Below are positions 35,582 to 63,313 of a stretch of 64,000 nucleotides of DNA, in pieces; positions within the stretch are counted from its first letter, which is position 1, and each line of letters begins with the position of its first letter. Source of the DNA: an uncultured Thermoplasmata archaeon (GTDB taxonomy: Archaea; Thermoplasmatota; Thermoplasmata; Lutacidiplasmatales; UBA184). The stretch spans positions 908,163-972,162 of the forward strand of contig CAVZDD010000005.1 of NCBI GenBank assembly GCA_963773945.1, read 5' to 3'. Position numbers and translations under genes: made by a program. The notes under the pieces are model-generated. The model was not told where the DNA came from and did not search any database. It saw only the letters and a list, made by a program, of their open reading frames with translations.

Positions 35582-36031
35582 GTTCGTCCCGAGATTGGCC
35601 GTTTCTCCTTCGCCACGACCCGGATGGGTCCGAGTCGGGTCCCCGGATATCCTCCGCCGCGAGTTTTCTCCAGGTACTTGACCATGTCCCATACAGTGAG
35701 AAGGGCCACCGTGGCCCCGACGAGCGCCTCCATCTCAACTCCTGTCCGCCAGAGGGCCTCCGCCTCCGCCTCCACTCGAACTCCCGTTCGGGTCGACCGG
35801 ACCTCGACCCGGCTCGCCGGTGAGCGGGATAGAGTGGCAGTGGGGGATCAGCTCCGGAGTGTGACGCATGGCCATCATGCCGGCGAGTTCGCCCGCGAGG
35901 AGAGGGTCCCCCTTCTCCACCCGCCCGGCGCGGATGGCCTTGCGGCTTTTTTCGGTGAGAAGGAGCGCGCCCTCCACCACCGCCCGGCGGTAGACGACGG
36001 GTTTCTGATGGACGCGGCGTTGGGCGGTCAC
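35575..36031 (-). CDS. moaC: Cyclic pyranopterin monophosphate synthase MoaC, interrupted by a 1-nt frameshift near 35808..35812
   Basis: N-terminal part has ...ELIPHCHSIPLTG (MoaC LIPLCHP motif) in ORF 35735..36031. The C-terminal part VEVRSTRTGVRVEAEAEALWRTGVEMEALVGATVALLTVWDMVKY (MoaC TGVEMEAL...TIYDM motif) is in another frame (ORF 35575..35775). Confidence 0.6.
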
Positions 36032-36035
36032 GGAG

Positions 36036-37031
36036 TTACCGGCTCCGGCCCTTCAGCGTAGCGATGCGAGCGAGTACCGACTCGAGCTGGATCCGGTCGG
36101 AGGCGCCCTGTGCGAGCCGGAAATCCAGGTCGGCGAGGTGCTGGATGAGCAGGATCTTCTCCCCGGCGGGAATAGGCGGTCCCGGTTCCCCCACGACGTA
36201 GCTGTGCAAGGACCGGAGGATATCCTCCCCGCTGGCCCCCCGCTCCACGAACAGGCGGAACAGCTGTTCCCGCGCGGCGAGAAAATCCCCCTCCAAGGCC
36301 GTTCCGAAGATCGCCTCTACCTCGTCGCGCATCGGAGCCGTGACGACGTCGCGGATGGCCGAGATATCGACTCGGTCCCGGAACGTGGCGGCCAGCTGCA
36401 ACAAGTTGATCGCCCGACGGAGGTCCCCGTCACTCGCCTCGATGATCGCTTGGTAGGCATCGGGCGAGACATCCCGTTTCTCCGCCGTGGCGATGCGCTT
36501 CAGCTGGTCCTGGATCTGGTCGGGCGAATAGATACGGAATCGGAAGACGGCGCAGCGGGACTGAATCGGCTCGATGATCCGGGACGAGTAGTTGCAGGAC
36601 AGTATGAAGCGGCACGCGGCCGAGTACCGTTCCATAAGCCGGCGCAGCGAAGCTTGGGCCTCCGCCGTGAGATTATCGGCCTCGTCAAGGAAGAGGATCT
36701 TGAACCCCCCGCCGATCGGCGCGCTGCGGGCATAGCTCTTGATCGTCGTGCGGACCGTGTCGATCCCGCGCTCGTCCGACGCATTCAGTTCCAGGAAGTT
36801 CTGGCGCCAATCCTCGCCAAACAGGTCACGCGCGAGCGCGATCGCGGCCGTGGTCTTCCCCGTGCCCGGGGGTCCAGCGAGCAGAAGATGCGGCATCGAG
36901 CGTTTCTGCGCGTAGGCGCGGAGCACGGGCACAATGCTCTCCTGGCCGACCATGTCGGCGAGGCTCTTGGGACGATACTTCTCGACCCAGACTGTGTCCC
37001 GTTCTTGCGCCGGCATGCAACCCGTGACCAC
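36036..37031 (-). CDS. rfcS: Replication factor C small subunit
   Basis: WVEKYRPKSL, Walker A GPPGTGKTT, SRC-like box, DEAD-like FLDEADNL, arginine finger region; 331 aa. Confidence 0.9.
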   Translation of the reverse strand: MVTGCMPAQERDTVWVEKYRPKSLADMVGQESIVPVLRAYAQKRSMPHLLLAGPPGTGKTTAAIALARDLFGEDWRQNFLELNASDERGIDTVRTTIKSYARSAPIGGGFKILFLDEADNLTAEAQASLRRLMERYSAACRFILSCNYSSRIIEPIQSRCAVFRFRIYSPDQIQDQLKRIATAEKRDVSPDAYQAIIEASDGDLRRAINLLQLAATFRDRVDISAIRDVVTAPMRDEVEAIFGTALEGDFLAAREQLFRLFVERGASGEDILRSLHSYVVGEPGPPIPAGEKILLIQHLADLDFRLAQGASDRIQLESVLARIATLKGRSR

Positions 37032-37127
37032 CGGACCGAACCGCGCACTTAGGGTTTGTCGGGGATTGACCTCGCGTTAGATGGAGGATATATCGCCGGC
37101 TGGCCTCCACCGACCCGGGAAAGCTCC

Positions 37128-37913
37128 ATGCGTCCGTTACTCGCGCACCTTCAATTCCGTGGCACCATCCGCGAACGCTCGGTCGAACCGTACATCCGCA
37201 TTCTGAAGGCGCTTCAGGCCAAGAACCGGGTGCGGGGCGTCCTGCTGGATATCTCGAGCGGCGGAGGAGCCGACATTCCCTCGCAGGATTTCTACATGGC
37301 CGTGAAGCGGCTTAACGCCGTGAAGCCCGTTCTCGCATCGATTGGCTCGGTCGGCGCCTCCGGTGCCTACATGGCGGCACTCGGTGCGCGCAGGATCTAC
37401 GCGTACCCCGAGTCGATTGTCGGCTCGATCGGCGTGGTGTTTCCCCATCTGGCGGTTCGAGAATTGCTCGAGAAGGTGGGAATCCATCTCGAGATGCTCC
37501 ACGAGGGCCGGCACAAGGACGCCTATCAGGGGTTCCGCGACCTCACCGATGAGGAGCGGACCAAGCTTCAGGCCGTGATCGGGGATAGCTATCGGGGCTT
37601 CGTCGAGACCGTGGCCCGCGAGCGTCACCGTCCCTTCGAGCAGATCCTCCCCCTGGCCACCGGCGAGTTTTGGTCGGGTCGAAAGGCCCTCGAACTGGGC
37701 CTCATCGACGCGCTGGGTGACCGGGACGCCGCTCTCCAGGAGCTCTCCCAGATGACCGGGGTTCCCGTCGGGCGCACGGTCCGCGTGGCGCCTCCACGAC
37801 CGTTCATGGAACGGTTCCTGTCGGGCGGAATGAACTTCATCGGCACCCGCGTGCGTGAAGGGATCCAGGACGCCGTCGAGGACCTGGCGTTCGAGTCGTT
37901 GTTCAGCCGGTAG
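37128..37913 (+). CDS. sppA: Signal peptide peptidase SppA (S49 family, short archaeal form)
   Basis: S49 core with catalytic-Ser context SIGSVGASGAYMAA and Lys region; internal ATG of ORF 37056..37913. Confidence 0.75.
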   Translation: MRPLLAHLQFRGTIRERSVEPYIRILKALQAKNRVRGVLLDISSGGGADIPSQDFYMAVKRLNAVKPVLASIGSVGASGAYMAALGARRIYAYPESIVGSIGVVFPHLAVRELLEKVGIHLEMLHEGRHKDAYQGFRDLTDEERTKLQAVIGDSYRGFVETVARERHRPFEQILPLATGEFWSGRKALELGLIDALGDRDAALQELSQMTGVPVGRTVRVAPPRPFMERFLSGGMNFIGTRVREGIQDAVEDLAFESLFSR

Positions 37914-37940
37914 TCTGCCGGCGCAGGTCCCCCATCGGGG

Positions 37941-37947: not shown

Positions 37948-37971
37948 GCGCCCTCGACCGTAGACCGCCCG

Positions 37972-39561: not shown

Positions 39562-40986
39562 TCACGACCCGGCCGAGCCCTCGAGTTCGGAGGCCACGAC
39601 ACCCACACGAGCCACCACACCAGCGGCTCGCCGACGCGCCGTTTCGAGGTCCGGGTCCTCGGAGAAGATCCGGAACAGCGGTTCCGTTCCCGAGGGACGC
39701 AGCAGTACCCACCCTCGACCCGAGTAGGCCTTGACACCGTCCAGGGTAACGACCCGTTCGGCCCCCTGGGCGAGTTCGGCCCCGAGCCGGTCCATCACAG
39801 TGGCCCGCAGAGCCACCGGGCAGGGGACCTTCTCCTTCACGACGTGGTAGCGGGGGAGATCGGCAAGTGCGTCCTCCAGCGACCCGCCCGTGTGCACGAG
39901 GAGGTCCAGGGTGGCCGCGAGGGTCATGGCGCCGTCTCGCGCCAGCTGGAACCGTGGGAAGATGTACCCGCCGTTATCCTCTCCACCGAACACGGCGCCC
40001 CGTTCCTGCATCGCGTGGGTGATGGACGGAGACCCGACGGGCGTGTAGAGGACCTGGCCCCCCTCCGCCCGGACCACGTCTTCGACGCTCTGGGAGGCGG
40101 TCACCGGGATCACGACCAAACCGCCGTGGCGCTGGCGGACATACTCTCGGGCGAACCACGTCAGAATGCGTTCGCCCGGAATGTAGTGGCCCCGGCCATC
40201 GACAAAAACGGCCCGGTCGGCGTCTCCGTCGTGGGCGACCCCGAAGTCCGCGCCGAGGGCCGGAACGGTCCGTACCAGTTCCTGGAGGTTTTGTTCGGTC
40301 GGCTCCGACAGGTGTCCGGGGAAGGTACCGTCGACCTGCCCATTCAGCGTCGTGAACCGGCACCCGAGTCGACGGAGGAGGGAGGGACTCGTCTCGCACG
40401 ACGCGCCGTTGCCGCAATCCAAGAGAACCCGGAAGTGCTTCTCGACGATCGCATCCCGTCGAACCTTCGATAGGATTCCGTGGAGGTACCGCTCGGCCCC
40501 GTGGGCGTCCGAGTGGATGCCGCCGATCCGATCATAGGGGACGCTCCGGAACTTTCCGGATTCCACGAACGCCTCGATGCGTTCCTCTTCACTGCGAGGG
40601 AGCTCCAGACCGTCCGCGGCAATGCACTTGATCCCATTGAACTCTGGGGGATTGTGCGACGCGGTCACGATGACGGCGAGTTGGGCCCCCACCGAGCGTA
40701 CATTGAACTGAATCGCGGGCGTTGGCAGCAACCCTAACTCGACGACCGAGTGACCTGCCGCCGCAAGGGTACCGGAGACCAGGCGGGCAAAGGCCGGACT
40801 CGAAGTTCGTCCGTCCCACCCGACTGCGACGGGGGCGCCGATGGGATAGGCCCCGCCGATCGCGGCCGCAACGGCGGTGACGAACGGGGCGTTCATCCGC
40901 TGTCCAACGACGTCGCGGATGCCGTTGGTGCCGAAGAGCCGCACGACCTCCGTGGGAAGGCGGGACAGATAATCCCTGCGTCGCAT
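39562..40986 (-). CDS. glmM: Phosphoglucosamine mutase / phosphomannomutase (archaeal GlmM-like alpha-D-phosphohexomutase)
   Basis: Active-site TASHNPPEFNGIK, metal loop FGVAHDGDADR, sugar-binding GEDNGGYIF; 474 aa. Confidence 0.85.
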   Translation of the reverse strand: MRRRDYLSRLPTEVVRLFGTNGIRDVVGQRMNAPFVTAVAAAIGGAYPIGAPVAVGWDGRTSSPAFARLVSGTLAAAGHSVVELGLLPTPAIQFNVRSVGAQLAVIVTASHNPPEFNGIKCIAADGLELPRSEEERIEAFVESGKFRSVPYDRIGGIHSDAHGAERYLHGILSKVRRDAIVEKHFRVLLDCGNGASCETSPSLLRRLGCRFTTLNGQVDGTFPGHLSEPTEQNLQELVRTVPALGADFGVAHDGDADRAVFVDGRGHYIPGERILTWFAREYVRQRHGGLVVIPVTASQSVEDVVRAEGGQVLYTPVGSPSITHAMQERGAVFGGEDNGGYIFPRFQLARDGAMTLAATLDLLVHTGGSLEDALADLPRYHVVKEKVPCPVALRATVMDRLGAELAQGAERVVTLDGVKAYSGRGWVLLRPSGTEPLFRIFSEDPDLETARRRAAGVVARVGVVASELEGSAGS

Positions 40987-45322: not shown

Positions 45323-45822
45323 GGATGGGTGGGTCCCTGCCGTCCTCGTCGCCGGCGCCCCGGACTATCGACTTGGGGACCGCCGCGAACGCCGGCGCGC
45401 ATTCGGGTCCGCGTCGTCGGAGTCGTCTCCGGTGGGTTCGTCACCGGGCGTCCCCGAGCGGGTGAGCTCGGAGAGCGAATCCAGCTCCCGGTCAAGGTCG
45501 TCGGAAGGCGGTGGGGTTCGGGGCCGGGCCAGGAGCGTGGGGGCGCGGGCCTCCTCCGTGGCTCGGCGTTCCTCGGTCATCTGGGAGAGCTGCCGCACCA
45601 GCGTCAGCCAGACCCGACCCTGGTTGGCGATTGTGCCTTCGACCCGCTCCCGGATCTCCCGGGTCCGATCCGCTAGGTCGGTCTCGATGCGTCGTAGGTC
45701 GTGAGTAAACTCCCGCCGAAGCTGGGCGTACTTGAGGTCGGCCTCCGCCGTGCTGGCGGATCCGCGTTCGAGCTCGGAGAGCCGGGTCCAGGCCTTTCGA
45801 ACGACCGGCACCAGGCGGTCGG

Positions 45823-48549
45823 TCAGTACCACGATCTTTCGGTCGAGCTCCTCGAGTTCGGCCCGGATGGCGTCCTCGAGCCGGGTGTTGTCCCGGCTCG
45901 GTCCGCGACGTCGGTCAGGAGCGTTTCGAGGCGTTGCGTCAGCTCGGCATGTTCCCGGCCGAATCGTTCTTCGACGGCCATGGCCCGCAGGTCGATCAGG
46001 TGCTGAACGTCGGAGCGGAGACTCTCGGTGCTTCGCTGGAACTGGTCCTTGACGATGCGTTCGGTGGCGGCCACATCCGGCGCCTTGTTCAGCGAGGATT
46101 CCGTCTCCCCCTTGAGACGTGCCAGGAGCTCCAGGTACTTTTCGCGCTCCCGGTCCAGGCTCTCCCGGAGCTTCTGGTCGGAGGACCATTGAAGACGGAC
46201 CTGCAATTCGGCGACCGAGTGCATCTCGGAGTCGCGGAGTTCCTCCAGCTTGGCGTCGACCTTCCGGTCCCCGCGACCCTCGAGGACGCCGAGTTGCTCT
46301 TCGACGAGGCCGCTCGTGCGCGACTCGGCCTCCCGCAGGGCGGCGGCGACCTTCTCCTGGACCTCCCGGGCGCGGCCGTCGATCAGGAGGGACAGTCGGC
46401 GCTCGATCTCCTGGAGCTCTTTGGCTCGCCGTTGCTCGGCCTCGGTGATACGACTCTCCGCGGCGCCGCGGAGCTTCTGTTCGAGTTCCTTCCGCTGGGT
46501 CTCGTCCCGGTCCTGGGCCTCTCGCAAGTGGAGGTCGAGCTGGGCGACCAGCGCTCCTCGAAGATCCTCCTCGGAGGCCTGGGCCCGCGTCTTGACATCC
46601 GTCAGGGCCTGGGTCAACGAGTCGCGGAGCTCGGCTCGAATCTGCTCGGCCGACTGCTTGAGGGATTCCTCGCCCCGGGTCCGAAACTCCTGGATCTTCG
46701 GGTCGACGAGGTTGCGCACACCCTGGTCGAGTTCCTGGCTCACGATCGTGCGCAAGTCAGCCTGCACGCGTTCTTCGGTCTGGGTGATCCGCGTCGAAGC
46801 GTCCTGGCTCAGTCGAGCCTCCAGTTCCGCCGTACGGGCGAGCAGCCGGTCCGTGAGGGAACTCAGCGCTTGCTGTTGGAGCGCGGTCCACGTCGTGAAC
46901 CGTTGTTCCATGGAAGAACGGGCCTCCTTGAGCGCCTCGGCCTGGCGCGCCGCTTGGTCCGCCAGCGCCGGCTTGAGATGTTCCTGCACCGCCCCATCGA
47001 TACGGAGCGGGTCGATGGGCTCTGGAGGGCGAGGCGGAGGTATCGCCCGCATTCGCTGCTCGACGACGGTGTTGAAGCGTTCCGCGAGCTCGTCCTGGAA
47101 GGCCTTCGTCCACCCGGCCGGAGGAACGGGGTTGACGTTGGACAATCGCTCGTCGAGGTACCGCATCAGGTCGGCTTCGATCTGCCGACGTAGCGCTCCC
47201 TGATCGATGACGGGCCCGGGGGACGCCGGAGCGGTACCGGGTTCCGGGACTTTCTGAAGGGACGGGTCGTCCTTGACGGACATGGGGACCACCTCGACCT
47301 TGCTAGTGCGCTGGGTCGCCAGAGGACTCGTACCGCCGCGCTGGAGCCAGGGAGGAAGCTGTCCGGCCACCTGGGGGTCCGGCACCGGAACAGGGGGCGC
47401 CGGCGGAAGGTCCGAGGCCCGGATCTCCTCCGCGGGCTCCTCGCCGGCATGCGCCTGGAGGTACTCCTGAGCCCGGCGCGAGAGCTCGGGACTCAGCTCG
47501 AGCCGACGGCCCCGGGGTTTCTGCAAGAGGAGCGCGGTGCTCTCCATCGCGGTGGATAGGCGCCACATCTCCTTCCGACGGTCCTTGCCTCCTTGACGGT
47601 CCGGGTCCGCCAACCGCGCCCGGAGCGTTCGAAGCTCGACCCGGTCCACGCGCTCGGTGACCGGGGTCAGCTTCGCCGTCGACCGCTCACGCACGTACTG
47701 GACGACAAGGGGCGTGATCTCCTTGCCCTTACCGGCCGGGGACGGGATGCCGTCGGTCAGGTCGTAGAGGGTAACCGGCGCCTCTTCCCAGCTCTGCACC
47801 CGCTTCCGGTGACGTTCCCCGCCCGATTCCCCGCGCGGGACGCGCAGGACCGCGAGAGAGAGCGGCGTGGCCTCGGCGAAGTCGGCGAGGTTGGTCTTGG
47901 GCTCCGGTAGGAAATAGGGGAACGCGAGGATGGCCCCCAAGGACAACAGCGAGGCCGGGAGCGTACGAACGTACTCGAAGATCGTCTCCATCGTAGCTTC
48001 CCATTCCTCCGCCGCGATCAGGAGGACGGGCTCGGTCGAGCCCCGGAAGAACAGGAATCCCTCTCCGACCAGTGGGTAGAGCTTGAGGTCGGCGGGTGGC
48101 GGAGGCCGTTGATCGTGTCGGCCGCCGCCCATCGATTCGTACCACTTGAGCAGGGTCTCGCCGAAATTGCCGCTGGCCAGCAGGCGGCCCGTATCGAGGA
48201 CGAGCGTCTTCATGCCGAGACGCGGCCGGTCCTCCGTGGACAGGAACATGCGGCCGAGGCAGGTGTAGGACCCGCCGTACGCCGGATAGAGGAACAGGTT
48301 CCGATAGTACGACAGGGGGAGGGCAGGGTCGGGGTCCCAGTAGTCCTGGGTGTCCGCGACGTTGACGGCGAGGTTGCCGACGATGCGGATTGCGTCGAGC
48401 GTTTCCTGGTACCCCGGGAAATCGTTCGGAAGGGCGGTGTAGCCCGGACTCTCGGCTTCGTTATCGACCTGCCGGCACCAGACCACGGCGATGGGTTCGG
48501 TGGCTCCGCCAGAGGTCGCGTCGGCGGCCTTGGGGCCCGGGGTTGCCAT
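45823..48549 (-). CDS. Giant hypothetical protein: ~330-aa N-terminal alpha/beta domain, Pro-rich linker, >500-aa continuous coiled-coil; last gene of the vWA operon. Probably continues to ~45365 after a 1-nt frameshift at 45892..45896.
   Basis: Start ATG 48549..48547 overlaps the upstream stop (TAATG). Heptad-rich E/R/L/Q/A sequence from ~residue 520 to the end. The coiled-coil continues in frame +1 (DNTRLEDAIRAELEELDRKIVVLTDRLVPVV..., track ORF 45365..46189). Confidence 0.6.
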   Translation of the reverse strand: MATPGPKAADATSGGATEPIAVVWCRQVDNEAESPGYTALPNDFPGYQETLDAIRIVGNLAVNVADTQDYWDPDPALPLSYYRNLFLYPAYGGSYTCLGRMFLSTEDRPRLGMKTLVLDTGRLLASGNFGETLLKWYESMGGGRHDQRPPPPADLKLYPLVGEGFLFFRGSTEPVLLIAAEEWEATMETIFEYVRTLPASLLSLGAILAFPYFLPEPKTNLADFAEATPLSLAVLRVPRGESGGERHRKRVQSWEEAPVTLYDLTDGIPSPAGKGKEITPLVVQYVRERSTAKLTPVTERVDRVELRTLRARLADPDRQGGKDRRKEMWRLSTAMESTALLLQKPRGRRLELSPELSRRAQEYLQAHAGEEPAEEIRASDLPPAPPVPVPDPQVAGQLPPWLQRGGTSPLATQRTSKVEVVPMSVKDDPSLQKVPEPGTAPASPGPVIDQGALRRQIEADLMRYLDERLSNVNPVPPAGWTKAFQDELAERFNTVVEQRMRAIPPPRPPEPIDPLRIDGAVQEHLKPALADQAARQAEALKEARSSMEQRFTTWTALQQQALSSLTDRLLARTAELEARLSQDASTRITQTEERVQADLRTIVSQELDQGVRNLVDPKIQEFRTRGEESLKQSAEQIRAELRDSLTQALTDVKTRAQASEEDLRGALVAQLDLHLREAQDRDETQRKELEQKLRGAAESRITEAEQRRAKELQEIERRLSLLIDGRAREVQEKVAAALREAESRTSGLVEEQLGVLEGRGDRKVDAKLEELRDSEMHSVAELQVRLQWSSDQKLRESLDREREKYLELLARLKGETESSLNKAPDVAATERIVKDQFQRSTESLRSDVQHLIDLRAMAVEERFGREHAELTQRLETLLTDVADRAGTTPGSRTPSGPNSRSSTERSWY

Positions 48550-49250
48550 TACTTGTCTCCGGCCGGCTCCTTGGCGAGCACGCGCTCGCAGATCCGGGCG
48601 AGAGGTAACGGAGTGTTCACCATGACCGGGATACCGGCGCCCGAGGAACCGCCGGGCATGCCCTCCACCGGGGCCGCTTCGGCCGTGCCGGAATCGGTCC
48701 AGAGCAGCGGTCGGCCCTCCCCGGTGGAGACGGCCGAGGAGACCAGGAAGACATCGTCCTTCGTGGAGATCCCCTGCCCGTCGTGGGCAACGAGAATCGT
48801 ACCCATACCGGCCCCGTCGCGGCGGAGCAGGAACTCCTGGGAGTCGAAGGTGCTCTGATAGGCCCTGTCCTTGAGGACATGGTCGATCTCGCCATAGAAA
48901 TCTTTGAGAAGATCCGCCTTCGAGATCGCGATCACGAGCGGGATGTTCCGGGCCTTGACGTACCGGAAGACGCCCCGGGCGAGGTTGACCTGCTGCGCCT
49001 GGTCGCGGAGCGAGGGCAGCGACGGCGACAGCAGGAGGATGATTCCATCGGCTTCCACAACGAACCGGCCGAGCAGGGTCAGTCCTCGACGCCAGAGCTC
49101 TTGCCGGTCCGGTCGCCAGGTCTCGAAGTGGGGGATCACCCGACACATCTTGTCGTCGATCTGGCCGTCGGCGGAGGTGAGCCAGAGCCGGTCGTAGGTG
49201 AAGTAATCCGAAATGATCCCGCCGGCCTCGTCGATCGTGTGCATCATCAT
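48549..49250 (-). CDS. Hypothetical protein with GTPase-like G3/G4 motifs (HTIDEAGG, EADGIILLL, ISKAD); third gene of the vWA operon
   Basis: Start is a triple ATG (MMMHTIDEAGG) overlapping the P-loop gene stop (ATGA). Internal ATG of track ORF 48549..49805; the upstream part of that ORF is the out-of-frame shadow of 49247..49738. Confidence 0.5.
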   Translation of the reverse strand: MMMHTIDEAGGIISDYFTYDRLWLTSADGQIDDKMCRVIPHFETWRPDRQELWRRGLTLLGRFVVEADGIILLLSPSLPSLRDQAQQVNLARGVFRYVKARNIPLVIAISKADLLKDFYGEIDHVLKDRAYQSTFDSQEFLLRRDGAGMGTILVAHDGQGISTKDDVFLVSSAVSTGEGRPLLWTDSGTAEAAPVEGMPGGSSGAGIPVMVNTPLPLARICERVLAKEPAGDK

Positions 49251-49738
49251 CGGCCGGGAACCGGGGCCCCCGGGTCCTTGCTGCCGTATCGGAAGCGCAT
49301 TTTCATCTCGACGAACTGGTTGAATTTCGTCGGTAGCGGATACTTGGTGAGGACGCCCTGCTCGTCGCGGGAGGCGGCCAGCTCGACCCAGAGCTTCTTC
49401 GGGTCCTCCATCGCCCGGTTGACGTAGTAGCGGGTCGTGGCCTCGAGGCTCCCCTCGGGATCCGTGGGGTCGGTGGTCTCGTAGGTTGTCTCCTCCAGGA
49501 TCACGTCCGAGTCGAGGTCGCCGTAGATCGGCATCGAGTTCGAGTCGGCGCGGGCCGGCACGTAGGTGATCGGAAGATTCAGTCCGAAATGGCCGGAGAG
49601 GAACCGGAAGTAGGTCGTCTTGCCCGACGCCGGGATCCCGACCACGGCGATCCGGGCAGCGGCGGCCGACGGCCCGGTCTCGTCCGACTTGCGCGGCGCG
49701 CGCTTGACCTTCGTCTTGGGGGTGGTCTTGACCGTCAT
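49247..49738 (-). CDS. Small P-loop NTPase (163 aa) with a Lys-rich N-terminal tail
   Basis: Walker A IAVVGIPASGKTTY; N-terminal MTVKTTPKTKVKRAPRK. Confidence 0.6.
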   Translation of the reverse strand: MTVKTTPKTKVKRAPRKSDETGPSAAAARIAVVGIPASGKTTYFRFLSGHFGLNLPITYVPARADSNSMPIYGDLDSDVILEETTYETTDPTDPEGSLEATTRYYVNRAMEDPKKLWVELAASRDEQGVLTKYPLPTKFNQFVEMKMRFRYGSKDPGAPVPGR

Positions 49739-49761
49739 CGTTTACGTCCCCCCGAAGCCCC

Positions 49762-51468
49762 TCAACGCATCTCCGCGAGGCATATCTCCATAAAATCCAG
49801 CGCACCGTCGGCGATAGGGTCCCGTTGCGTGTTATTGAGACGTATATCCTGCAATAGCCCGAAGATCTCCTCGACGGAGTTCTCGTGCTGGATGGCGCCC
49901 TCCATCAGGGACTGGTCGTTGCCCCCGACCCGGGCGAGCTGGTAGGTCGTTCGGAGTTCGAGGAGCTTTTCGAAAATGGTCTCCAGCTGATGGCCGAGTT
50001 CCGGTTCCTTGCGCTCCAGACGGTGCTGGGTGTCGTCCATGAACCGGACAAGGGTCTCGGTTTCGGAATCGTTCTGGATCCGGCTCTGGAGGAGGGCGAG
50101 GCGACGGCTGATGCGTCCCCGGGAGTCGGCAGGCAATCGGTCGGCCTCGACCCAGGCATGCAAGAGGGACCGAGCGGCCTCGACCACCTCCCCGCGAGCG
50201 TAGTGGATCCGGGCCTCCCAGTAGAACCGGGTCAACGCGGGCAGGAGCGCCTGCGCACGGAACAGGCGGTTCATCGCGGTCGCGTAGTCGCGCGCGACGA
50301 ATGCCTCGACCACTTCGCCCAAGGGGCCGTACCGTTCCTTGAGATGCGGCGGCAGGGTGCCACCCTGAAGTTCCAGGACGTCGACTTCGGAGGGTAACGG
50401 GCCGGTCCCGGCGTCGGAGGACGGCGGGGGGAGATCCTTCCGGTTCTTGAGTTGGGTCAACGTGGCGTGTTCGCCGGGCGCCTTGAGAGCCTTCGCGGCC
50501 CGGGCGGCGTGTTCCGCCAGCTCCTCAGGATGCAGCTCCTCGAAGGGGCGGGTCCCCTCGTAATCGACGTCGATGAAGGAGTTCACCATTTGGGAGAACA
50601 GGTCGGTGCTCGTGGCGACTTCCTGGTACGTTACTTCGGAGGCGATGCCGGCAGCCTGGGCCCGGCCCCGAAGCTGTTCCACGAGGCCGTTCATCTGCCC
50701 CGAATCGACGCCCTTGTCCCGTTCGGAACCGCTGCCAATCCCGATGATCCGGAGCGTGAGCTGCGAAGAGTTGGGGAGAACGTGAGGCACGAGGTCGATC
50801 CGACGGCTCATCTCGGGCGTGAGCGGTTCGGAAGCGGGGGCCCGGAAGCGGCTCGAGGCGTTGTCCCACCCATCCGTGACCAGGACGAGAGTACCGACAA
50901 CCTCGCCCGACGGCTTGCGGAGCAGGTCCGCTCCGAGTGCGATCCCATCCCAAATCGCGGATCGACCCGAGGGAGCCAGCATCGAGATGAGACTCTCGAT
51001 GTACGGTAAGTTCTCGTGGCGGATTTCGGTGAGCGGCACCGCGACCCGGGCGCTGTCCGTGAACGTCACGAGTCCGAAGAATGCGCCCGTCGCCTCTGCG
51101 TTCTCGAGAATGCGGTACACCGCGGTTCGAGCCACCTCGATCTTCCGACGCTCGCCTTGGATGCCAGAGGGGTCCGGCAACGGAGCGAGCATGCTCTTGG
51201 AAAGGTCGAGCACGAGCACGTGCCGGGGCCGGACCACCGGCACTGGAGGAGTCTGAAGATCGTCTGCGATCATAAGGGGTTGACCTACGAGAAGTCGACG
51301 GCGGCCCGTCGGCGCGTCTCGCTGCTCCCGGTCACCTCTCGTTTTAGGGTCCGAAAGGTATATGGTCCTTGTCCCAGCGGCGGCGTTCGGAATCTGCCCC
51401 TGGCTCGGCGGTAGCAGGCCCCACACGCCGGCGCCGTCCGGCCGCAGATAGGGCTTTAAGGAGGACAC
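49762..51468 (-). CDS. von Willebrand factor A (vWA) domain protein with a C-terminal alpha-helical (TPR-like) region; first gene of the operon
   Basis: MIDAS motif VLVLDLSKSM (DxSxS), downstream T (VTFTDSARV) and D (LVLVTDGWDN) MIDAS residues; C-terminal 250 aa helical (WEARIHYARGEVVEAARSLLHAW...). Confidence 0.75.
   Translation of the reverse strand: MSSLKPYLRPDGAGVWGLLPPSQGQIPNAAAGTRTIYLSDPKTRGDREQRDAPTGRRRLLVGQPLMIADDLQTPPVPVVRPRHVLVLDLSKSMLAPLPDPSGIQGERRKIEVARTAVYRILENAEATGAFFGLVTFTDSARVAVPLTEIRHENLPYIESLISMLAPSGRSAIWDGIALGADLLRKPSGEVVGTLVLVTDGWDNASSRFRAPASEPLTPEMSRRIDLVPHVLPNSSQLTLRIIGIGSGSERDKGVDSGQMNGLVEQLRGRAQAAGIASEVTYQEVATSTDLFSQMVNSFIDVDYEGTRPFEELHPEELAEHAARAAKALKAPGEHATLTQLKNRKDLPPPSSDAGTGPLPSEVDVLELQGGTLPPHLKERYGPLGEVVEAFVARDYATAMNRLFRAQALLPALTRFYWEARIHYARGEVVEAARSLLHAWVEADRLPADSRGRISRRLALLQSRIQNDSETETLVRFMDDTQHRLERKEPELGHQLETIFEKLLELRTTYQLARVGGNDQSLMEGAIQHENSVEEIFGLLQDIRLNNTQRDPIADGALDFMEICLAEMR
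51454..51461 (+). promoter_or_regulatory. TATA-like element (CTTTAAGG) ~29 bp upstream of the S17e ATG (leaderless), in the divergent region shared with the vWA operon
   Basis: gggCTTTAAGGagg. Confidence 0.35.
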
Positions 51469-51710: not shown

Positions 51711-52097
51711 AAGGAGCGCGCGCGCGCGTGCCCGGTCTCTCTTCTCCTACGCTCGTTGATTTTCTTGAGGCCGAGCGCGAGCGCCGGGGCTGGGTGGGTC
51801 AGGTCCGTCGTCTTCGCGGAGCCCGTCTCCTGACCAACGCCCGCTATCGGAGGCTCATGTGGGCCAACCAGATACTCGTGGGCACGACGGAACCCCCCGT
51901 CGACTGGCAGGAAATTCAGGCGCAGGCCGAGCCAACGTTCCGATCGCTGGGCGTGAAAGGTCGTCGCGTCATGCTCTTTGGGGACGAGGTCCGGCGCCGG
52001 CTCGGAAGGGCCCTTGTCCGTCGACGGGTTCCGGGAGCGGACCATCTGGCTCCTGGCCTTCCGCGGCCTGACCTCCGCCCAGCCGAATCCCCGGGTG

Positions 52098-52523
52098 ATG
52101 ATCCGTCTCGTGGACCCGTTCCTCCGACCGGCCTGGTTCACGCTCTCCTACCGGGTCGAACAGGAGACCGCCCGACCCGGCGAATCCGTGTCGGACTGGG
52201 CGAGCTTCTACTCGAGCTTAGCGGAACGACCGGCCCACCGGACCTATGCGGGTTTTCTGGGCGATACCATGGTGGGTTCGGTGGACCTCGCGAAGATCGG
52301 CTCTCTCGCCTCGATCGATCACGTCCAGACGGCGCCCGAGTGGAGAGGCCAAGGCGTCGCGACGACGCTGGTGCTCCGGGCCACCGACGAGGCCGTGCGG
52401 GACGGGGCCCGGGGCATCCAACTGACCACGCACTCCCCAGCCCTCACCGAGCAGCTCTACCGTCCCTGCGGCTTCGAGACCATCAGTCGGTTGTCCATTT
52501 TCGAACGGGGGATCTCCGAGTGA
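52098..52523 (+). CDS. GNAT family N-acetyltransferase; a possible ~120-aa N-terminal extension (51728..~51980) is in another frame
   Basis: Acetyl-CoA site VQTAPEWRGQGVATTLV (Q/R-x-x-G-x-G/A) and the beta4-alpha3 region; the core domain starts at MIRLVDP. Confidence 0.7.
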   Translation: MIRLVDPFLRPAWFTLSYRVEQETARPGESVSDWASFYSSLAERPAHRTYAGFLGDTMVGSVDLAKIGSLASIDHVQTAPEWRGQGVATTLVLRATDEAVRDGARGIQLTTHSPALTEQLYRPCGFETISRLSIFERGISE

Positions 52524-55340: not shown

Positions 55341-56170
55341 ATCGTCGGATCGCCCGGGAGGTAGTGCGATTGATGGATTTGCACGTCCCATTCGTACGGG
55401 CCACGGTCGTGAAGACGGTCGGTTCGGTCCCCGGAAAAGTTGGCGCCACCATGGTGCTGAGACCCGATGGAACCTTCCTCGGCACGATCGGCGGTGCCGG
55501 GCTTGAGGAACAGGTCAAGGACCATGCCCGCTCAGCCTTCTCGAGCGGGAAGAGCGACCTCTACCACTTTGATTTGCAAGCCTGGAAGCCGGGAGGGCTC
55601 CCCAGTCTCTGCGGTGGGTCCGTAGACATCGCCGTGGAGTACATCGCCCCGCGGCCGAACCTCCTGCTCTGGGGCGGCGGGCACGTCGCGGAAGCGATCG
55701 CGGGGCTGCTCCCCACGTTGGAGTACGATTTTAGCGTCGCCGACGACCGCCCGGAATGGGTGACCGCGCAACGATTCCCGGACGCCGACCGACGCGAATC
55801 GGTGACGCCGGCGGAAGTCTGGACCGTGTTTGATCCGGGGGAGTTTTCTCATCTCTACTTGCTCGGCTACGACGCGAAGAAGGACCTCGAGCTCCTCGCG
55901 AGCTCGCTCGACCGGTTCCCCGGATACATCGGGCTCATCTCGAGCGCACCCAAGCGGACGCACATGTTTGCCGAGCTGAGGCGTCGAGGCGTCTCTTCGA
56001 AGGTTCTCGCCCGAGTTCACGCTCCCATCGGCCTGGCCATCGGAGCGGAGAGCCCGGCAGAGATTGCCGTCAGCGTGGTCGGGGAGATCATTCAGTCGCT
56101 TCGGGAACCAGTGAGACGACGTTCGGCCGTGGGCCGGGGCGCCGCTCCGGCGCGGGAGTTGTCGCCCTGA
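55337..56170 (+). CDS. XdhC/CoxI-family molybdenum-hydroxylase maturation factor
   Basis: N-terminal XdhC_CoxI (ATVVKTVGSVPGKVGATMVL) plus a C-terminal Rossmann-like domain (LLLWGGGHVAEAIAGL); 4-bp overlap with MocA. Confidence 0.75.
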   Translation: MNRRIAREVVRLMDLHVPFVRATVVKTVGSVPGKVGATMVLRPDGTFLGTIGGAGLEEQVKDHARSAFSSGKSDLYHFDLQAWKPGGLPSLCGGSVDIAVEYIAPRPNLLLWGGGHVAEAIAGLLPTLEYDFSVADDRPEWVTAQRFPDADRRESVTPAEVWTVFDPGEFSHLYLLGYDAKKDLELLASSLDRFPGYIGLISSAPKRTHMFAELRRRGVSSKVLARVHAPIGLAIGAESPAEIAVSVVGEIIQSLREPVRRRSAVGRGAAPARELSP

Positions 56171-56217
56171 CGACCCAGCAGGTCCTTCGGCTGGACATCA
56201 ATGGCCAACCGATCGAA

Positions 56218-58968
56218 GTGCCGGCTCCGGCCGAGCGGATCTTGCTGGACCTCCTGCGGGAGGACCTCAACCTGACGGGGACGAAACGCGGGTGCGACCT
56301 GGGAACCTGCGGGTGCTGCACCGTCCTGCTCGACGGCCGGCCGGCGCTATCCTGTCTCACCCTGGCGGCGATGGCCGAGGGGAAGTCGATCACGACGATT
56401 GAGGGGGTCTCTTCCGGGACGGAACTGCACCCGGTGCAGAAGGCGTTCGTGACCCATGGGGCGACGCAATGCGGGTTCTGTACGCCCGGCTTCGTCCTCA
56501 GCGCGGTCGCCCTGTTGCGGGATCATCCCCATGCCTCCCGCGAGGAGGTCGTCGACGCGATCTCCGGAAATTTGTGCCGGTGCACGGGTACACCAAAATC
56601 GTCGAAGCCATCCTCGCCGCTCGCCCGGGGGGGAGCGCGTAGCATGGCCGCAACCCCCAAACCCGACCTTCGGTTGCTCGGCGGTTCCATCCCCTACATC
56701 GAAGGTCCGCTCAAAGTGTCCGGTCGGTCCGAGTACACGGACGACCTGAAGCGTCCCGGCATGCTCGTCGGGAAACTCCTTCGCGCCCCGTGGCCCCACG
56801 CCCGTCTCGTCAAGGTCGACGTGACGAAGGCGCGGTCGATGCCCGGGGTCTTCGCCGTGTTGACCGGTGAAAAGTACCCGACGCCTTTCGGCGTGCTTCC
56901 CATCACGAAGGATGAAACGGCGATCGCCGTGAACCGGTCCCGGTACATCGGTGACATCGTCGCGGCGGTCGCCGCCCAGGACGAGCTCACCGCGGAACGA
57001 GCGTTAGCGGCGGTCGAGATCGAGGTCGAGACGCTCCCGGAATATTCGGACCCGCGCGTGGGACGGAACCGGGTGGATGTGCCCATTCACGAGAAAGGCC
57101 TCAACCACTCGAACATCCAGAAGGAGGTCGTTCAACATTTTGGCGATGTGGACGCGGCGTTCCGCAACGCCGCGGCCACCGTACGGGTCCGGGCCTCCTT
57201 CGCCGGCGTAACGCACGCGTTCACGGAACCCCAATGCACCATCGCGGAAGCCACACCGGACGGCCGGCTCACGGTGTGGAGCTCCACCCAGGTCCCGCAC
57301 TATCTCCACCGATCCCTGTCGGAGGTGTTGGGCCTCCCGATGCACCGCATCCGCGTCATCAAGCCGGAGGTCGGCGGAGGGTTCGGGGGGAAGTCCGACC
57401 CGCTTCCCCACGAAATTGCCTGCGCCGCCCTCGCGCTCGAGACCGGCCGCCCGGTCAAGATCCTGTTCGACCGGGACGAGGTGTTCTACACCAATCACGG
57501 ACGTCACCCCACGTTCAACGACGTCCGGATCGCGGCCGACGCCGAGGGGAAGCTGCTCGGCTACGACATCGAGGCCGTCATCGAGGGGGGCGCGTGGAGC
57601 TCTTTCGGTACCGTGACGACGTACTACAACGGCGTGATGGCGATGGGCCCGTATCAGCTACCGAGTTTCCGGTACAAGGGCCAGCGGGTGTTCACCAATC
57701 GACCCCCGTCGGGAGCGATGCGGGCCCACGGGGGGACCAACATCCGATACTCCGTGGAGGTCGGGCTCGACGAGTTGGCCGAGAAGCTCGCGCTCGACCC
57801 GTTCGACCTGCGGTCCCGTAACGCTCTCGCGCCCCATTCTACGACGATCAATGAATTCCGAGTCACCTCCACGTCCTTCCTGCGATGTCTCCAGGCCGTC
57901 CGTGAGCGGAGCGGATGGGCCGAGAAATGGAGGCGACTGCCGTTCGGTCACGGGGTGGGACTCGGCTGCGGGTTCTACATTTCCGGGTCGAACAGCCCGA
58001 TCCACTTCACGCCCAAGATGCCGCAATGCACCGTGCATCTCAAGGCCGACATGGATGGCGGGATCACGGTCCACAGCATGCAGGCCGATATCGGCCAGGG
58101 GTCGAACACGTTACTTGCGGCGATCGTGGCCGAGGTGGTCGGTGTATCGCTCGACCGGATTCACGTGAGCCTGGTGGATTCCGATGTAACGCCGGTCGAT
58201 ATCGGGAGCTATTCGAGCCGCGTGACGTTCATGATGGGCAACGCGGCCCGGAAGGCGGCGGAGAATCTCCGGGACCAGCTGCTCGAAGCGACGCACCAGC
58301 TTACGGGGTACCCCCGGGAGGCGCTCCGGGTCCGGTTGGAACGCTACGAAGTGGAGCACCGACCCGAGATCGGCGCAACGTACATGGAAGCACTCCACCG
58401 GGCCATCCAGGGCTCGGGCGCGCTCCAATCGACCGGGGCGTACACCTCCCCTCCCGTGGGGGGGAGCTTCAAGGGAGCCCGAGCGGGCACGGCTCCGGCC
58501 TACTCGTTCGCGGCGTACGTAGCCCAGGTCTCCGTGGACGACGAGACCGGAGTATTCGAGGTCGAAAAGGTCTGGGCCGCCTTCGATTGTGGCCGGCCGC
58601 TCAACCGGCTCGCCGTCGAGGGGCAGATCCAGGGCTCGATCCACATGGGTCTGGGCCAGTTCATGGGCGAATCGATGGACTACCGGGGCACGCGGTTGAT
58701 GAACCCCTCGCTGCTGGATTACAAAATCCTCATGCCACACCAGATGCCGGAGGTCGAGTGCCTCCTCGTGGGCGCCGACGACCCGGAGGGGCCGTTCGGC
58801 GCGAAGGAAGCGGGGGAGGGACCGCTCGTCGCGACACTGCCGGCGGTGGGCAACGCGCTCTACGACGCGATCGGCGTCCGATTCTGCGACCTGCCGGTCA
58901 CGCCGGACCGGGTGCTGAAGGGGCTGGACCGCCGGCGCGCGGAGTCCCGTGCGTGGAAGGGCCACTGA
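56218..58968 (+). CDS. Molybdenum hydroxylase with the [2Fe-2S] small subunit (CoxS-like) fused to the molybdopterin large subunit (CoxL/XdhA-like); coding probably begins upstream at ~56167
   Basis: Cluster I GCDLGTCGCCTV, cluster II CGFCTPGF...CRCTG, then the aldehyde-oxidase/xanthine-DH a/b-hammerhead and MoCo-binding domains (GGGFGGK). The first ferredoxin beta-strand (VLRLDINGQPIEV) is encoded in frame before the GTG with no canonical start. Confidence 0.8.
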   Translation: MPAPAERILLDLLREDLNLTGTKRGCDLGTCGCCTVLLDGRPALSCLTLAAMAEGKSITTIEGVSSGTELHPVQKAFVTHGATQCGFCTPGFVLSAVALLRDHPHASREEVVDAISGNLCRCTGTPKSSKPSSPLARGGARSMAATPKPDLRLLGGSIPYIEGPLKVSGRSEYTDDLKRPGMLVGKLLRAPWPHARLVKVDVTKARSMPGVFAVLTGEKYPTPFGVLPITKDETAIAVNRSRYIGDIVAAVAAQDELTAERALAAVEIEVETLPEYSDPRVGRNRVDVPIHEKGLNHSNIQKEVVQHFGDVDAAFRNAAATVRVRASFAGVTHAFTEPQCTIAEATPDGRLTVWSSTQVPHYLHRSLSEVLGLPMHRIRVIKPEVGGGFGGKSDPLPHEIACAALALETGRPVKILFDRDEVFYTNHGRHPTFNDVRIAADAEGKLLGYDIEAVIEGGAWSSFGTVTTYYNGVMAMGPYQLPSFRYKGQRVFTNRPPSGAMRAHGGTNIRYSVEVGLDELAEKLALDPFDLRSRNALAPHSTTINEFRVTSTSFLRCLQAVRERSGWAEKWRRLPFGHGVGLGCGFYISGSNSPIHFTPKMPQCTVHLKADMDGGITVHSMQADIGQGSNTLLAAIVAEVVGVSLDRIHVSLVDSDVTPVDIGSYSSRVTFMMGNAARKAAENLRDQLLEATHQLTGYPREALRVRLERYEVEHRPEIGATYMEALHRAIQGSGALQSTGAYTSPPVGGSFKGARAGTAPAYSFAAYVAQVSVDDETGVFEVEKVWAAFDCGRPLNRLAVEGQIQGSIHMGLGQFMGESMDYRGTRLMNPSLLDYKILMPHQMPEVECLLVGADDPEGPFGAKEAGEGPLVATLPAVGNALYDAIGVRFCDLPVTPDRVLKGLDRRRAESRAWKGH

Positions 58969-61031: not shown

Positions 61032-61063
61032 CTCGTTCCCTCCCCGGCGGAGGGGTCGGGGGC

Positions 61064-62035
61064 CTATAGCATCACGCGGAGGCCGAGCTTCTCGGTGAGC
61101 TCCTTGTACCGGTTCCGGATCGTCACTTCGGTGACGCCCGCCACTTCGGCGACCTCGCGTTGGGTGCGCCGCTCGCCGCATTGGACGGAGGAGATGTAGA
61201 TCGCCGCGGCGGCGACACCGGTCGGACCCCGCCCGCTCGTCAGTTCACGTTCCGTCGCGAGCTTGAGGATCTCGTTCGAGCGCGTCTGGACCTCGCCCTT
61301 GAGCTTAAGTTCCGAGCAGAACCGTTGGATGTAGTCCTGCGGCCGGGTCGGGAGCAGCTTGAGCTTGAGCTCCCGCGTCATGAACCGGTAGGTTCGACCG
61401 ATCTCCTTGCGGCCGATGCGCGATTTGCTCGCGATCTCGTCCAAGGTTCGGGGCACGTTGCACTGTCGGCAACTGCCGTAGAGGGACGCCGCGACTACGC
61501 CCTCGATCGACCGGCCACGGATGAGGTTCCGCGACACGGCCTTTCGGTAGATCATGGCGGCCGTCTCCCGGACGTTCCGGGGCAGCGCCATGCTGGAGGC
61601 GAGGCGGTCGAGCTCCGCGAGGGCAAACGCCAGGTTCCGTTCCGTGGCGTTCGAGACCCGGATGCGGCGTTGCCATTTCCGGAGCCGGTAGAGTTGGGCC
61701 CGGTTGCGGGTCGGGATGGACTTACCGTACGGATCCCGGTTCTTCCAGCCGATCTCCGTGGACAGTCCCTTGTCGTGGATCGTCAAAGTGGTCGGAGCAC
61801 CGGTCCGGGTACGCTTCTCGCCCTGCTCGGCGTCGAACGCACGCCACTCGGGTCCCTGATCGATCATTCCCTCTTCGAGGACGAGGCCGCACTCGTCGCA
61901 GACGAGTTCGCCCTTCTCGTAGTCCCGGGTCAGATGGGTGGAGCCGCAATTCGAACAGCGGGTGGGCACCACGACGTCACTGGGTCGGTCGGCCGGCTTG
62001 GTTGCATCTCCCGCGACGTTTTCAGGTTGCGCCAT
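61064..62035 (-). CDS. tfb: Transcription initiation factor IIB (TFB)
   Basis: N-terminal zinc ribbon CSNCGS...CDECG, B-reader/linker, two cyclin repeats; 323 aa. Confidence 0.9.
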
Positions 62036-62315
62036 GCATTCCCTCCGCTTCTATCAGAGTCGTTCCTAACAGCAGAGCCGCTTCCGCGTCACGCGGGGGG
62101 CGGCGGGGTCGCACGGAAACGTACGGCCGAGCGACCGGTCCGAACACACGGACGATACGTCCCGAGAACCGTCCCGTCGCATCCACCACGTTGGTTCCCT
62201 CGACCGGTACCCATTTTCCCGCCGTGCGAGCCGTCACATGGCCAGTGGGGGTAATCGCAGTGACAACGCCCACGTCGCGACCTTTGCCACCAACGCGGCT
62301 CTCCCGGCGAGACAA
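62022..62315 (-). CDS. gar1: H/ACA ribonucleoprotein complex subunit Gar1
   Basis: [56 protein letters not shown] (Gar1 beta-barrel signature ...G.V.DVFGPV..PY..VKP); TTG start; overlaps the tfb start; two TATA-like elements lie just upstream. Confidence 0.75.
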
Positions 62316-62341
62316 GGGGTATAAACGACTTGCGATGGGTA

Positions 62342-63313
62342 TTAAAGCGTTACGCGGGGGGCCGTCGGTTCCGGCGCGACCCGGAGTAGGTTACCGCCGG
62401 CTCGGAGGGGGTCGGCTCGGGGTCCGGCGTCTCGATGCCGACGGCCGCCGGGGGGGGGGCCAATGCATCGGTTCGCTCGCGGGCGAGCCGGTCGACCTCG
62501 CCCCATAGCTCTTCCAGCTCTTCTTCGGGGCTCCCATACCGCCGGTCCTCCGACAGGGCGGCACGCACTTGGTTCATGAGTCGGGCGGCGCCTTGTGCAT
62601 CCCGGGCGCGGTACTTCATCCGGTTCGAGCCGGCGCGCCAGGTTCCGCGCTTCGAGCAGGATCTCCTCCTCCTCCCGCTGTTGCATTTTGGGGGGAACGG
62701 CCGGCGCCCGCGGAATCCGGGTCACCGCCCGACGGAGGTCGATGAAGCGCTGTCCAATGTCGGCCAGACGTCCCTCCCGCAGGGCCTGCAAGAGCTGGGC
62801 GAGGCGGACGCCCGACTCCCGGACATCTTCGCCCCGTTCGTTGGCCTCCCGGATCGATTTGGCGAGCTGCTGGGCCTCCTGGGTGTAGAACTTGGGCAGA
62901 GTGTCGTTGAGCACGACCAGGGCCAGGGAGGCGCTCGCCGCTGCCTTCTCGAGCGAACCTTCCGCGAGGGGAAGGGTACGGAGCTGTTGCCGGGCATTTC
63001 CGATCCGCTGGTCCACGACTTCGAGGTCTACGCCGCTCCGGGCGGCCAGGTCCCGAAGCTCGTCGACGCGCGACAGTAGCTCTTTGAGCCAGGTCCAATC
63101 CCGCTGCGTTTTGTCGAGGAGCGCCTCGGCCCGTCGGACGGTGGTGATCGCCGCCGCCAGGTCGTGTTTCGAGATCTGGCCCCGTACCTCGGAAACGAAG
63201 GATGCGGAGTCGTACGGAATCCCTTCGGCCGCTAGGGAGTCCCCACGTCGTACGATGCCGCTGACCCGGGCGGTCAATGCTGAGGTAGTTCCCACCGGTC
63301 GATTGGGGGTCAC
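62342..63313 (-). CDS. Hypothetical alpha-helical protein, disrupted by a 1-nt frameshift at 62601..62606
   Basis: N-terminal ~225 aa in ORF 62342..63313 up to ...RNLARRLEPDEVPRP, then a GC-rich nonsense tail. The protein-like continuation DAQGAARLMNQVRAALSEDRRYGSPEEELEELWGEVDRLARER... is in ORF 62350..62619. Confidence 0.4.
   Translation of the reverse strand: MTPNRPVGTTSALTARVSGIVRRGDSLAAEGIPYDSASFVSEVRGQISKHDLAAAITTVRRAEALLDKTQRDWTWLKELLSRVDELRDLAARSGVDLEVVDQRIGNARQQLRTLPLAEGSLEKAAASASLALVVLNDTLPKFYTQEAQQLAKSIREANERGEDVRESGVRLAQLLQALREGRLADIGQRFIDLRRAVTRIPRAPAVPPKMQQREEEEILLEARNLARRLEPDEVPRPGCTRRRPTHEPSACRPVGGPAVWEPRRRAGRAMGRGRPARPRANRCIGPPPGGRRHRDAGPRADPLRAGGNLLRVAPEPTAPRVTL

Follow-up and report, generated by a model that had tools for sequence, protein, structure and literature searches.

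Pseudogenes accumulate in decaying genomes, for example that of Mycobacterium leprae. Broken genes can also be a product of assembly: the residual indels of Nanopore-only, Medaka-polished assemblies break open reading frames (ORFs) and inflate gene counts, the shortening of a run of five G's to four being a classic case. The Microflora Danica long-read metagenome-assembled genomes (MAGs) are Nanopore only, with one Medaka round (PMC12313526). A second class of Nanopore error is induced by base modification (Lohde et al. 2024, PMC11610573; Chiou et al. 2023, PMC10687267); the read pile-up fails to correct such errors, and where the errors fall can reveal the motifs responsible. The published examples are mostly substitutions, not indels (PMC10687267).

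The window considered here is a 64 kb stretch of DNA (65% GC) from an uncultured soil Thermoplasmata archaeon. The size of the contig carrying it (0.2-1 Mb) suggests a long-read source, most likely Nanopore reads alone, assembled with Flye and polished with Medaka. It was compared with same-species contigs, drawn from the GenBank MAGs GCA_049280255.1 and GCA_049581325.1 and from four assemblies of SRA runs, which cover 61 of the 64 kb (1-12552 and 15186-63729) at 99.8-99.95% identity, and with a second long-read contig of the same species (ENA ERZ25039507 contig_6243, 2.0 Mb), the only comparator for 12553-15185; positions 63730-64000 have none. The fragmentation of the other comparator contigs (1.6-26 kb), and the title of L002 (“...ilm_asm... 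k127_”), suggest that they are Illumina-based, and they are called short-read-type below. They represent other samples and populations of the species rather than the window's own reads, and at ~0.1-0.2% substitution divergence are the same species without being the identical strain. Indel sites were placed by pairwise alignment to 99.8%-identical conspecific contigs. Exact-protein look-ups with the long MoaB ORF and the phosphoesterase gave no match.

Against the short-read-type conspecific contigs the window has nine indels of 1-3 nt and no other indel differences (Table 1). All nine are private to it, and all are absent from the short-read-type contigs (L008-L011, L013, L016, L023, L024). 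They are very probably long-read consensus errors in this genome rather than mutations. Nine edits restore seven frameshifted genes and one lost codon: a single edit per gene yields a full-length frame that elsewhere matches the undamaged genes of the conspecifics at 99.8% identity and has no second lesion, and each contig checked then aligns without gaps. L023 and L024 differ from the unedited window at 24771 only. The first-pass annotation had noted five of the seven genes (moaC, a coiled-coil giant, a P-loop NTPase, a GNAT acetyltransferase, and a hypothetical protein), all of which do change frame relative to intact relatives or conspecifics; the repeat protein at 12528 and the gene at 56585 complete the list. 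It had favored systematic long-read error over five pseudogenizations, a reading borne out by indels that are private, motif-tied, and absent from the short-read-type contigs. As the test of that reading it had proposed asking whether short reads confirm the window's base counts; the short-read-type data, from other samples, show the opposite.

Table 1. Positions of the nine indels private to the window, the genes concerned, and the conspecific contigs that lack each change (inserted bases in brackets).
Site	Position (strand)	Probable error	Gene and effect	Conspecific contigs without it
12528	12528 (+)	spurious extra C, CCGGTG[C]TCT	repeat surface protein, 1156 codons (9855-13326, plus), broken	L016
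24771	24771 (+)	spurious extra T, GAC[T]GGTAC	intergenic	L011, L012/L022, L023, L024
35815	35815 (+)	spurious extra C, CCCGGCT[C]GCC	moaC (35575-36031, minus), frameshifted	L011, L012, L013 (all with 151-aa MoaC)
39568	39568..39569 (+)	three bases missing in GACCGGCCGGCC	phosphoglucomutase C-terminus (39562-40986, minus), in-frame loss of one codon	L011, L013 (three bases present)
45898	45898..45899 (+)	missing C, CCCGGCTCGG for true CCCGGCTCCGG	coiled-coil giant, 1061 aa (45365-48549, minus), frameshifted	L010 (C present; intact 1061-aa gene)
49262	49263..49266 (+)	G run 4, should be 5 (AACCGGGGGCCCCC)	P-loop NTPase, 396 aa (48549-49738, minus), split	L010 (G5; intact 396-aa gene)
52003	52003 (+)	spurious extra C, GCCGGCT[C]GGA	GNAT acetyltransferase, 264 aa (51728-52523, plus), frameshifted	L008, L010 (both with 264-aa GNAT)
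56585	56586..56588 (+)	G run 3, should be 4 (CACGGGGTAC)	[2Fe-2S] small subunit (56167-56642), frameshifted	L008, L010 (GGGG)
62626	62626 (+)	spurious extra C, TCCGGTT[C]GAG	hypothetical protein, 320 aa (62350-63313, minus), frameshifted	L008, L009 (320-aa gene in L009)

Among the five genes first noted, the Pfam MoaC match is split over two frames (profile positions 4-68 and 74-135), and deletion of the base at 35815 opens a 158-codon frame containing ...IPLTGSRVEVRS...; for the hypothetical protein, deletion of the base at 62626 opens a frame of 328 codons. Four to six syntenic relatives have one unbroken ORF each for the giant, the P-loop NTPase, and the GNAT protein. The giant-protein site reads GACCGGAGCCGGG in four of the more distant ones, within a single continuous ORF; the GNAT site is one base shorter in six, again in a single ORF; and the P-loop junction lies within a single ORF in five, the sixth (L001) breaking ~40 nt downstream. 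The P-loop NTPase has 354 homologues at E <= 1e-20; among the 120 that were listed, almost every one is ~385-433 aa long. Two readings of the giant and P-loop region as something other than broken genes were tried. Either protein might have been encoded by two genes, or by a programmed shift common to the relatives, but three-frame-translated nucleotide alignments show single ORFs in the relatives. The P-loop junction, with ATGATGATGA, could likewise have been a stop/start overlap of two coupled genes, a reading rejected because a single 396-aa protein is encoded there in the relatives and in a conspecific contig.

A further reading is that these genes are switched deliberately, by programmed ribosomal frameshifting, transcriptional slippage, or phase-variable tracts. 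In its favor are the G5C5 tract at the P-loop site and the fact that the frameshifting changes are all single G/C bases. This is nonetheless extremely unlikely: at each site the conspecifics and four to six relatives read through in one frame, the tracts are at most five bases long, five of the nine events fall outside any repeat, and the genes are housekeeping or cytoplasmic ones rather than contingency loci.

Three of the sites, the frameshift at 56585, the 3-nt deletion at 39568, and the extra T at 24771, had escaped the first-pass annotation. The frameshift at 56585 runs the small subunit into the molybdopterin large subunit in the same frame, and the outcome is an artificial 916-aa ORF (56218-58968) in which the Pfam domains Fer2 and MoCoBD both occur; in the conspecific contigs (L008 and L010) the two subunits have a gene each, the small one 158 or 148 aa long and the large one 774 aa. 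At 39568, the long-read contig L012 is itself one base short at the same spot. The site at 24771 falls between called genes in L011. The fourth site outside the five genes, 12528, had been set apart as possibly biologically real, but its context (CCGGTG[C]) and its absence from L016 place it in the same class as the rest; with the base deleted, the repeat protein can be read straight through for 1156 codons, its repeat unit intact. The other long-read contig has an extra C of its own 4 nt downstream (12532). At both 12528 and 39568 the two long-read assemblies have gone wrong in one place, each in its own way.

The converse reading, in which the window is correct and the errors lie in every one of the short-read-type contigs, has its formal possibility in its favor and is otherwise extremely improbable. 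Between two and four conspecific contigs agree at eight of the nine sites and distant relatives concur; 45898, 49262, and 12528 each rest on one short-read-type contig, with relatives backing the first two. The comparator versions, moreover, give full-length conserved proteins where those of the window are truncated.

The second long-read assembly is damaged in a comparable way at other positions. Contig_6243 has 12 private indels, all different from those of the window, and the short-read-type contigs have none. Eight of the 12 are at the edges of GTAC (p = 7e-12) and four are CCGG-linked; among those found after the GTAC motif had been defined, and therefore out of sample, four of five are at GTAC (p = 6e-7). 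Among seven distant relatives, frame breaks in conserved genes (three) were seen only in the Nanopore MAG L001 (MFD09222), and none in the other six. L001, which belongs to a different species (~78% nucleotide identity), also has CCGG- and GTAC-adjacent indels. Private substitutions are alike in all the assemblies (5-13 per 20 kb); the excess is confined to indels, with a density of ~1 per 7 kb in the window and ~1 per 4 kb in its long-read sister contig.

These figures bear on whether the frameshifts could be genuine and strain-specific, with moaC, the operon of the P-loop and giant genes, the GNAT gene, and the other affected genes in the course of being lost. The comparators do come from other populations, at the substitution divergence given above, and would leave room for such a strain. 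Nine private indels against ~5 private substitutions per 20 kb are far from a natural ratio, however, and a strain undergoing real losses would not be expected to be curable gene by gene with a single edit, nor to carry indels bound to motifs. An independent long-read assembly is similarly damaged elsewhere while the short-read-type contigs are undamaged, and insertions 4 nt apart in two assemblies (12528 and 12532) are implausible as biology. Genuine mutation is accordingly considered very improbable.

The motif itself differs from the one first proposed. In five of the nine indels a single C has been gained or lost, always exactly two bases 3' of CCGG (YCCGG-Y-K^C; p = 7e-5 for the window); in three of these the C is inserted between T and G. 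Of the other four, two are at or 2 nt from GTAC, one is the G5-to-G4 change next to a CCGG, and the last falls within a CCGGCCGG repeat. The first-pass annotation had pointed to CCGGG-like or CCSGG contexts and short G runs; a link to a motif stands, in the form of CCGG followed by two bases, plus GTAC, and the link to CCSGG or G runs does not. CCGG lies exactly 2 nt upstream of four of the five true sites in the genes it named, as it does at 12528, and CCSGG flanks only two of the five. Homopolymer compression, also suggested there, applies to 49262, the sole long homopolymer error of the nine. The moaC error is not in the GGG run but at the first base of the 11-mer quoted for it, and the base missing from the giant follows the first base of the quoted 13-mer. 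The P-loop locus was right, although the shortened run is the C run adjoining the G5 that was named (coding strand). The GNAT and hypothetical-protein errors had been placed at GGGG (51980-51983) and CCCGGG (62598-62608), each ~20 nt from its true site. Two mislocated motif matches of this kind are expected by chance, because the features are so common in the window: 34% of its positions have a CCSGG no more than 30 nt away, and 88% have a G/C run of at least three no more than 20 nt away. The CCGG+2 association is not expected by chance.

Neither CCGG nor GTAC is sufficient for an error. Errors strike fewer than ~1% of the window's CCGG sites and, across the two long-read assemblies, 1-6% of GTAC sites, and the motif is therefore a risk factor rather than a determinant. 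Motif counts in the window (204 GTAC against ~207 expected from base composition; 870 CCGG against ~714) bear neither way on restriction-modification.

As to mechanism, the basecaller or polisher would misjudge the length of the signal at CCGG and GTAC k-mers, probably where coverage is as modest as in a metagenome bin. Base modification at the two motifs is a plausible candidate for what perturbs the signal, with roughly even chances of being the cause. Clustering on a short, often palindromic motif, as expected of methylation errors, is seen here for both CCGG and GTAC. This part of the explanation is weakened because published modification errors are mostly substitutions, and no DNA methyltransferase for CCGG or GTAC was seen in the ~100 kb inspected. 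Both points would sit comfortably with a context bias in how the basecaller and polisher handle CCGG-NN and GTAC k-mers, one that low coverage brings out and that requires no methylation, as would the presence of both motif classes in both long-read assemblies and of indels adjacent to them in L001. Such a bias is quite possible as the sole cause, but it has to accommodate the more than 90% of identical k-mers that are called correctly, and the predominance of CCGG-linked indels in the window and GTAC-linked ones in contig_6243 (a difference that is not significant). CCGG and GTAC are, in addition, classic palindromic restriction-modification targets, which also counts against it. A bolder conjecture has the indels real, marking a strain-specific mutational hot spot at CCGG+2 and GTAC, possibly through restriction-modification-linked nicking or repair, or through population heterogeneity captured by the consensus; a milder form has the error positions as an indirect readout of a CCGG/GTAC methylome. 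It is regarded as very doubtful.

If the indels are consensus errors, as preferred here, their value is for data hygiene. Read as it stands, the window would suggest a loss of moaC, and with it of molybdenum-cofactor synthesis, beside an intact molybdoenzyme operon; the NTPase would seem to be split, the giant truncated, and a dehydrogenase subunit fused. Very probably none of these is real. At an indel density of ~1 per 4-7 kb, pseudogene counts, gene fusions, and metabolic calls from such long-read MAGs call for polishing with short reads or against a reference. The rule of CCGG+2 and GTAC offers a cheap flag for suspect frameshifts across this genome and, should modification be confirmed by raw signal, would hint at the organism's methylation motifs.

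Of the systems introduced at the outset, the closest is the residual error of Nanopore-only, Medaka-polished assemblies. There as here the indels are single-base, private to one assembly, and absent from short-read data; they break ORFs and inflate gene counts, and the G5-to-G4 site is typical. Unlike typical residual errors, most events here are not in homopolymers, and five are a C gained or lost two bases after CCGG. Modification-induced errors (PMC11610573, PMC10687267) share with these their recurrence, their tie to short motifs that the error positions betray, and their persistence through read pile-up, but the published ones are dominated by substitutions at the modified base, where those in the window are indels beside a candidate motif. 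The resemblance to M. leprae is limited to the presence of several frameshifted conserved genes within a few tens of kilobases: in contrast to genome decay, there are no secondary lesions, the breaks do not occur in close relatives, they are bound to motifs, and the ratio of indels to substitutions is far too high.

Conspecific contigs located by exact-protein look-up are 99.8-99.95% identical to the window, and therefore belong to the same species. The fragmented ones (1.6-26 kb, from GCA_049280255.1, GCA_049581325.1 and four single-SRA-run assemblies, all from other samples and probably of Illumina origin) span window positions 1-12552 and 15186-63729. Besides ordinary substitutions, the window differs from them by exactly nine indels, every one private to it (see table). 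Applying the nine edits left zero gaps against every short-read-type contig aligned; for two further contigs (L023, L024), the indel at 24771 is the sole such difference. That the comparators are wrong and the window right is contradicted by the agreement of independent assemblies with one another, and homology also speaks against it.

Private indels of the window and of contig_6243, frameshifts of L001, and the conserved gene trio
Assembly	Change or feature	Position	Context	Gene or occurrence
Window	+C	12528	CCGGTG[C]TCT	repeat surface protein
Window	+T	24771	GAC[T]GGTAC	intergenic
Window	+C	35815	CCCGGCT[C]GCC	moaC
Window	-3 nt	39568	GACCGGCCGGCC	phosphoglucomutase C-terminus, in frame
Window	-C	45898	CCCGGCT[C]CGG	giant protein
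Window	-G	49262	G5 to G4 in AACCGGGGGCCCCC	P-loop NTPase
Window	+C	52003	GCCGGCT[C]GGA	GNAT
Window	-G	56585	CACGGGGTAC to CACGGGTAC	[2Fe-2S] subunit
Window	+C	62626	TCCGGTT[C]GAG	hypothetical protein
contig_6243	GTAC-edge events	9191, 18869 (two events), 19935, 27942, 35672, 38024, 42597
contig_6243	CCGG-linked events (n=4)	12532, 34417, 34679, 39568
L001	frameshifts	~12190-12220, 3062-3075, 636-637
Window	VWA / P-loop NTPase / coiled-coil trio	45365-51468 (minus)		also in L001-L007, L010

The five ORF disruptions listed in the first-pass annotation are all present as frame switches. MoaC is split, with Pfam profile positions 4-68 and 74-135 in two different minus-strand frames and the hallmark segment GVEMEAL in the second. 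Codon-position GC and three-frame translations reveal switches in the giant coiled-coil protein, the P-loop NTPase and the GNAT protein, and each of these sites lies in an uninterrupted single ORF in 4-6 relatives. The sites are not conserved and there are insertions outside repeats; both facts contradict programmed frameshifting or phase variation.

Once corrected, the frames equal the conspecific gene calls: MoaC, 151 aa; P-loop NTPase, 396 aa; giant protein, 1061 aa; GNAT, 264 aa; hypothetical protein, 320 aa. A frameshift at 56585 had been overlooked; because one G is absent there, [2Fe-2S] and molybdopterin-binding domains are fused in an artificial 916-aa ORF (within 56167-58968), which resolves into a separate Fer2 protein (148 or 158 aa) and a 774-aa subunit, as in the conspecific contigs. 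The repeat surface protein (9855-13326) becomes one open frame of 1156 codons after correction at 12528; it is large, secreted or anchored, with ~80-aa tandem repeats (TFTTSPSTCGTITFNGT...YPVSATACTGYTLESLVGSGSVTVSSGTATVSGAG) and a C-terminal transmembrane segment.

The disruptions are thus an artefact. The nine indels are assembly-private and tied to motifs, and undoing them restores intact genes; the original diagnosis of systematic consensus error without pseudogenes stands. Its motif, a G run in CCGGG or CCSGG, does not: five of the nine events (12528, 35815, 45898, 52003, 62626) are instead insertions or deletions of a single C, in each case exactly 2 nt 3' of a CCGG (CCGG+2; consensus YCCGG-Y-K^C). 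A random indel would meet this rule 5.9% of the time, giving p = 7e-5; the motif was derived from four sites, and 12528, formerly set apart as possibly real, matched afterwards as a private indel like the rest. For moaC and the giant protein the string originally quoted begins with the true base, which is three bases outside CCGGG. The P-loop locus was named correctly, and a change of one G was right in kind, the altered base being G or C at all five originally listed sites. The runs chosen for the GNAT and hypothetical proteins lie ~20 nt from the true sites; at 65% GC, 34% of the window's positions have a CCSGG no more than 30 nt away and 88% have a G/C run of at least 3 no more than 20 nt away, so these picks are chance expectation. 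CCGG lies on the 5' side on the plus strand in all five CCGG+2 events, regardless of gene strand, an orientation bias that is not significant at n=5 (two-sided p ~0.06). At 56585 the shortened G run is the one with which a GTAC begins, and the indel at 24771 is 2 nt upstream of another.

A second long-read assembly of the species, the 2.0-Mb contig_6243 (ENA ERZ25039507; L012/L014/L015/L022), has 12 private indels in ~44 kb. Eight lengthen G or C at a GTAC edge (p = 7e-12); for the indels that emerged only once the motif had been fixed, the figure is four of five (p = 6e-7). Its [G]AGCCGG at 34417, read on the opposite strand, matches the window's CCGGCT[C] exactly. Its indels break or alter several genes, among them a MoaC-MoaB fusion, ABC-3, an aminotransferase, Sec61-beta and a 473-aa protein. 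At two loci both assemblies err, differently: each has one extra C, at 12528 and 12532 respectively, and in the phosphoglucomutase repeat CCGGCCGG (39562-39575) the window lacks three bases and contig_6243 one. A difficult signal explains this easily; mutation is hard to reconcile with it.

Private substitutions are alike in four assemblies (5, 9, 13 and 8 per ~20 kb), and the excess in the long-read assemblies consists of indels only. Real pseudogene mutations are very improbable: they would require nine private indels where private substitutions number ~5 per 20 kb, affected genes that each lack a second lesion, and a motif rule common to different sites in an independent assembly.

The window is archaeal, since it has Pfam matches to RFC small subunit, TFIIB, eIF-6 and a wyosine radical-SAM enzyme. 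Querying a genome collection with the VWA protein yielded seven syntenic loci, all in Thermoplasmata MAGs from soil or sediment, with 76-82% nucleotide identity across 39.7-61.4 kb. The VWA protein, 396-aa P-loop NTPase and 1061-aa coiled-coil protein form a trio kept across soil Thermoplasmata. For the NTPase, 354 homologues score E <= 1e-20 (~385-433 aa for nearly all of the 120 listed); it has no family in Pfam and may merit separate study.

Conserved genes are frame-broken in only one of the seven, L001 (MFD09222.bin.2.157, a sister-species Nanopore MAG), with zero breaks found in those of the other six. The three affected genes encode the P-loop NTPase (CCGG[C]GGG), also broken in the window, a dehydrogenase large subunit ([A]GGTAC) and an FAD subunit. 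Microflora Danica long-read MAGs were assembled with Flye from Nanopore data only, with a single Medaka polishing round (PMC12313526); the title of L002 ('...ilm_asm... k127_...') agrees with the project's Illumina/MEGAHIT MAGs (PMC12823411).

The window probably derives from a long-read assembly, as a carrying contig of 0.2-1 Mb among the exact-protein look-up results suggests; basecalling or polishing would there mis-size bases adjoining CCGG and GTAC. Base modification (methylation) has about an even chance of being the cause; indels adjoining both motifs also occur in L001, another species, and plain k-mer bias fits these equally well. Methylation-caused, motif-bound Nanopore errors are documented, but those are mainly mismatches, whereas the window's are indels (PMC11610573, PMC10687267).
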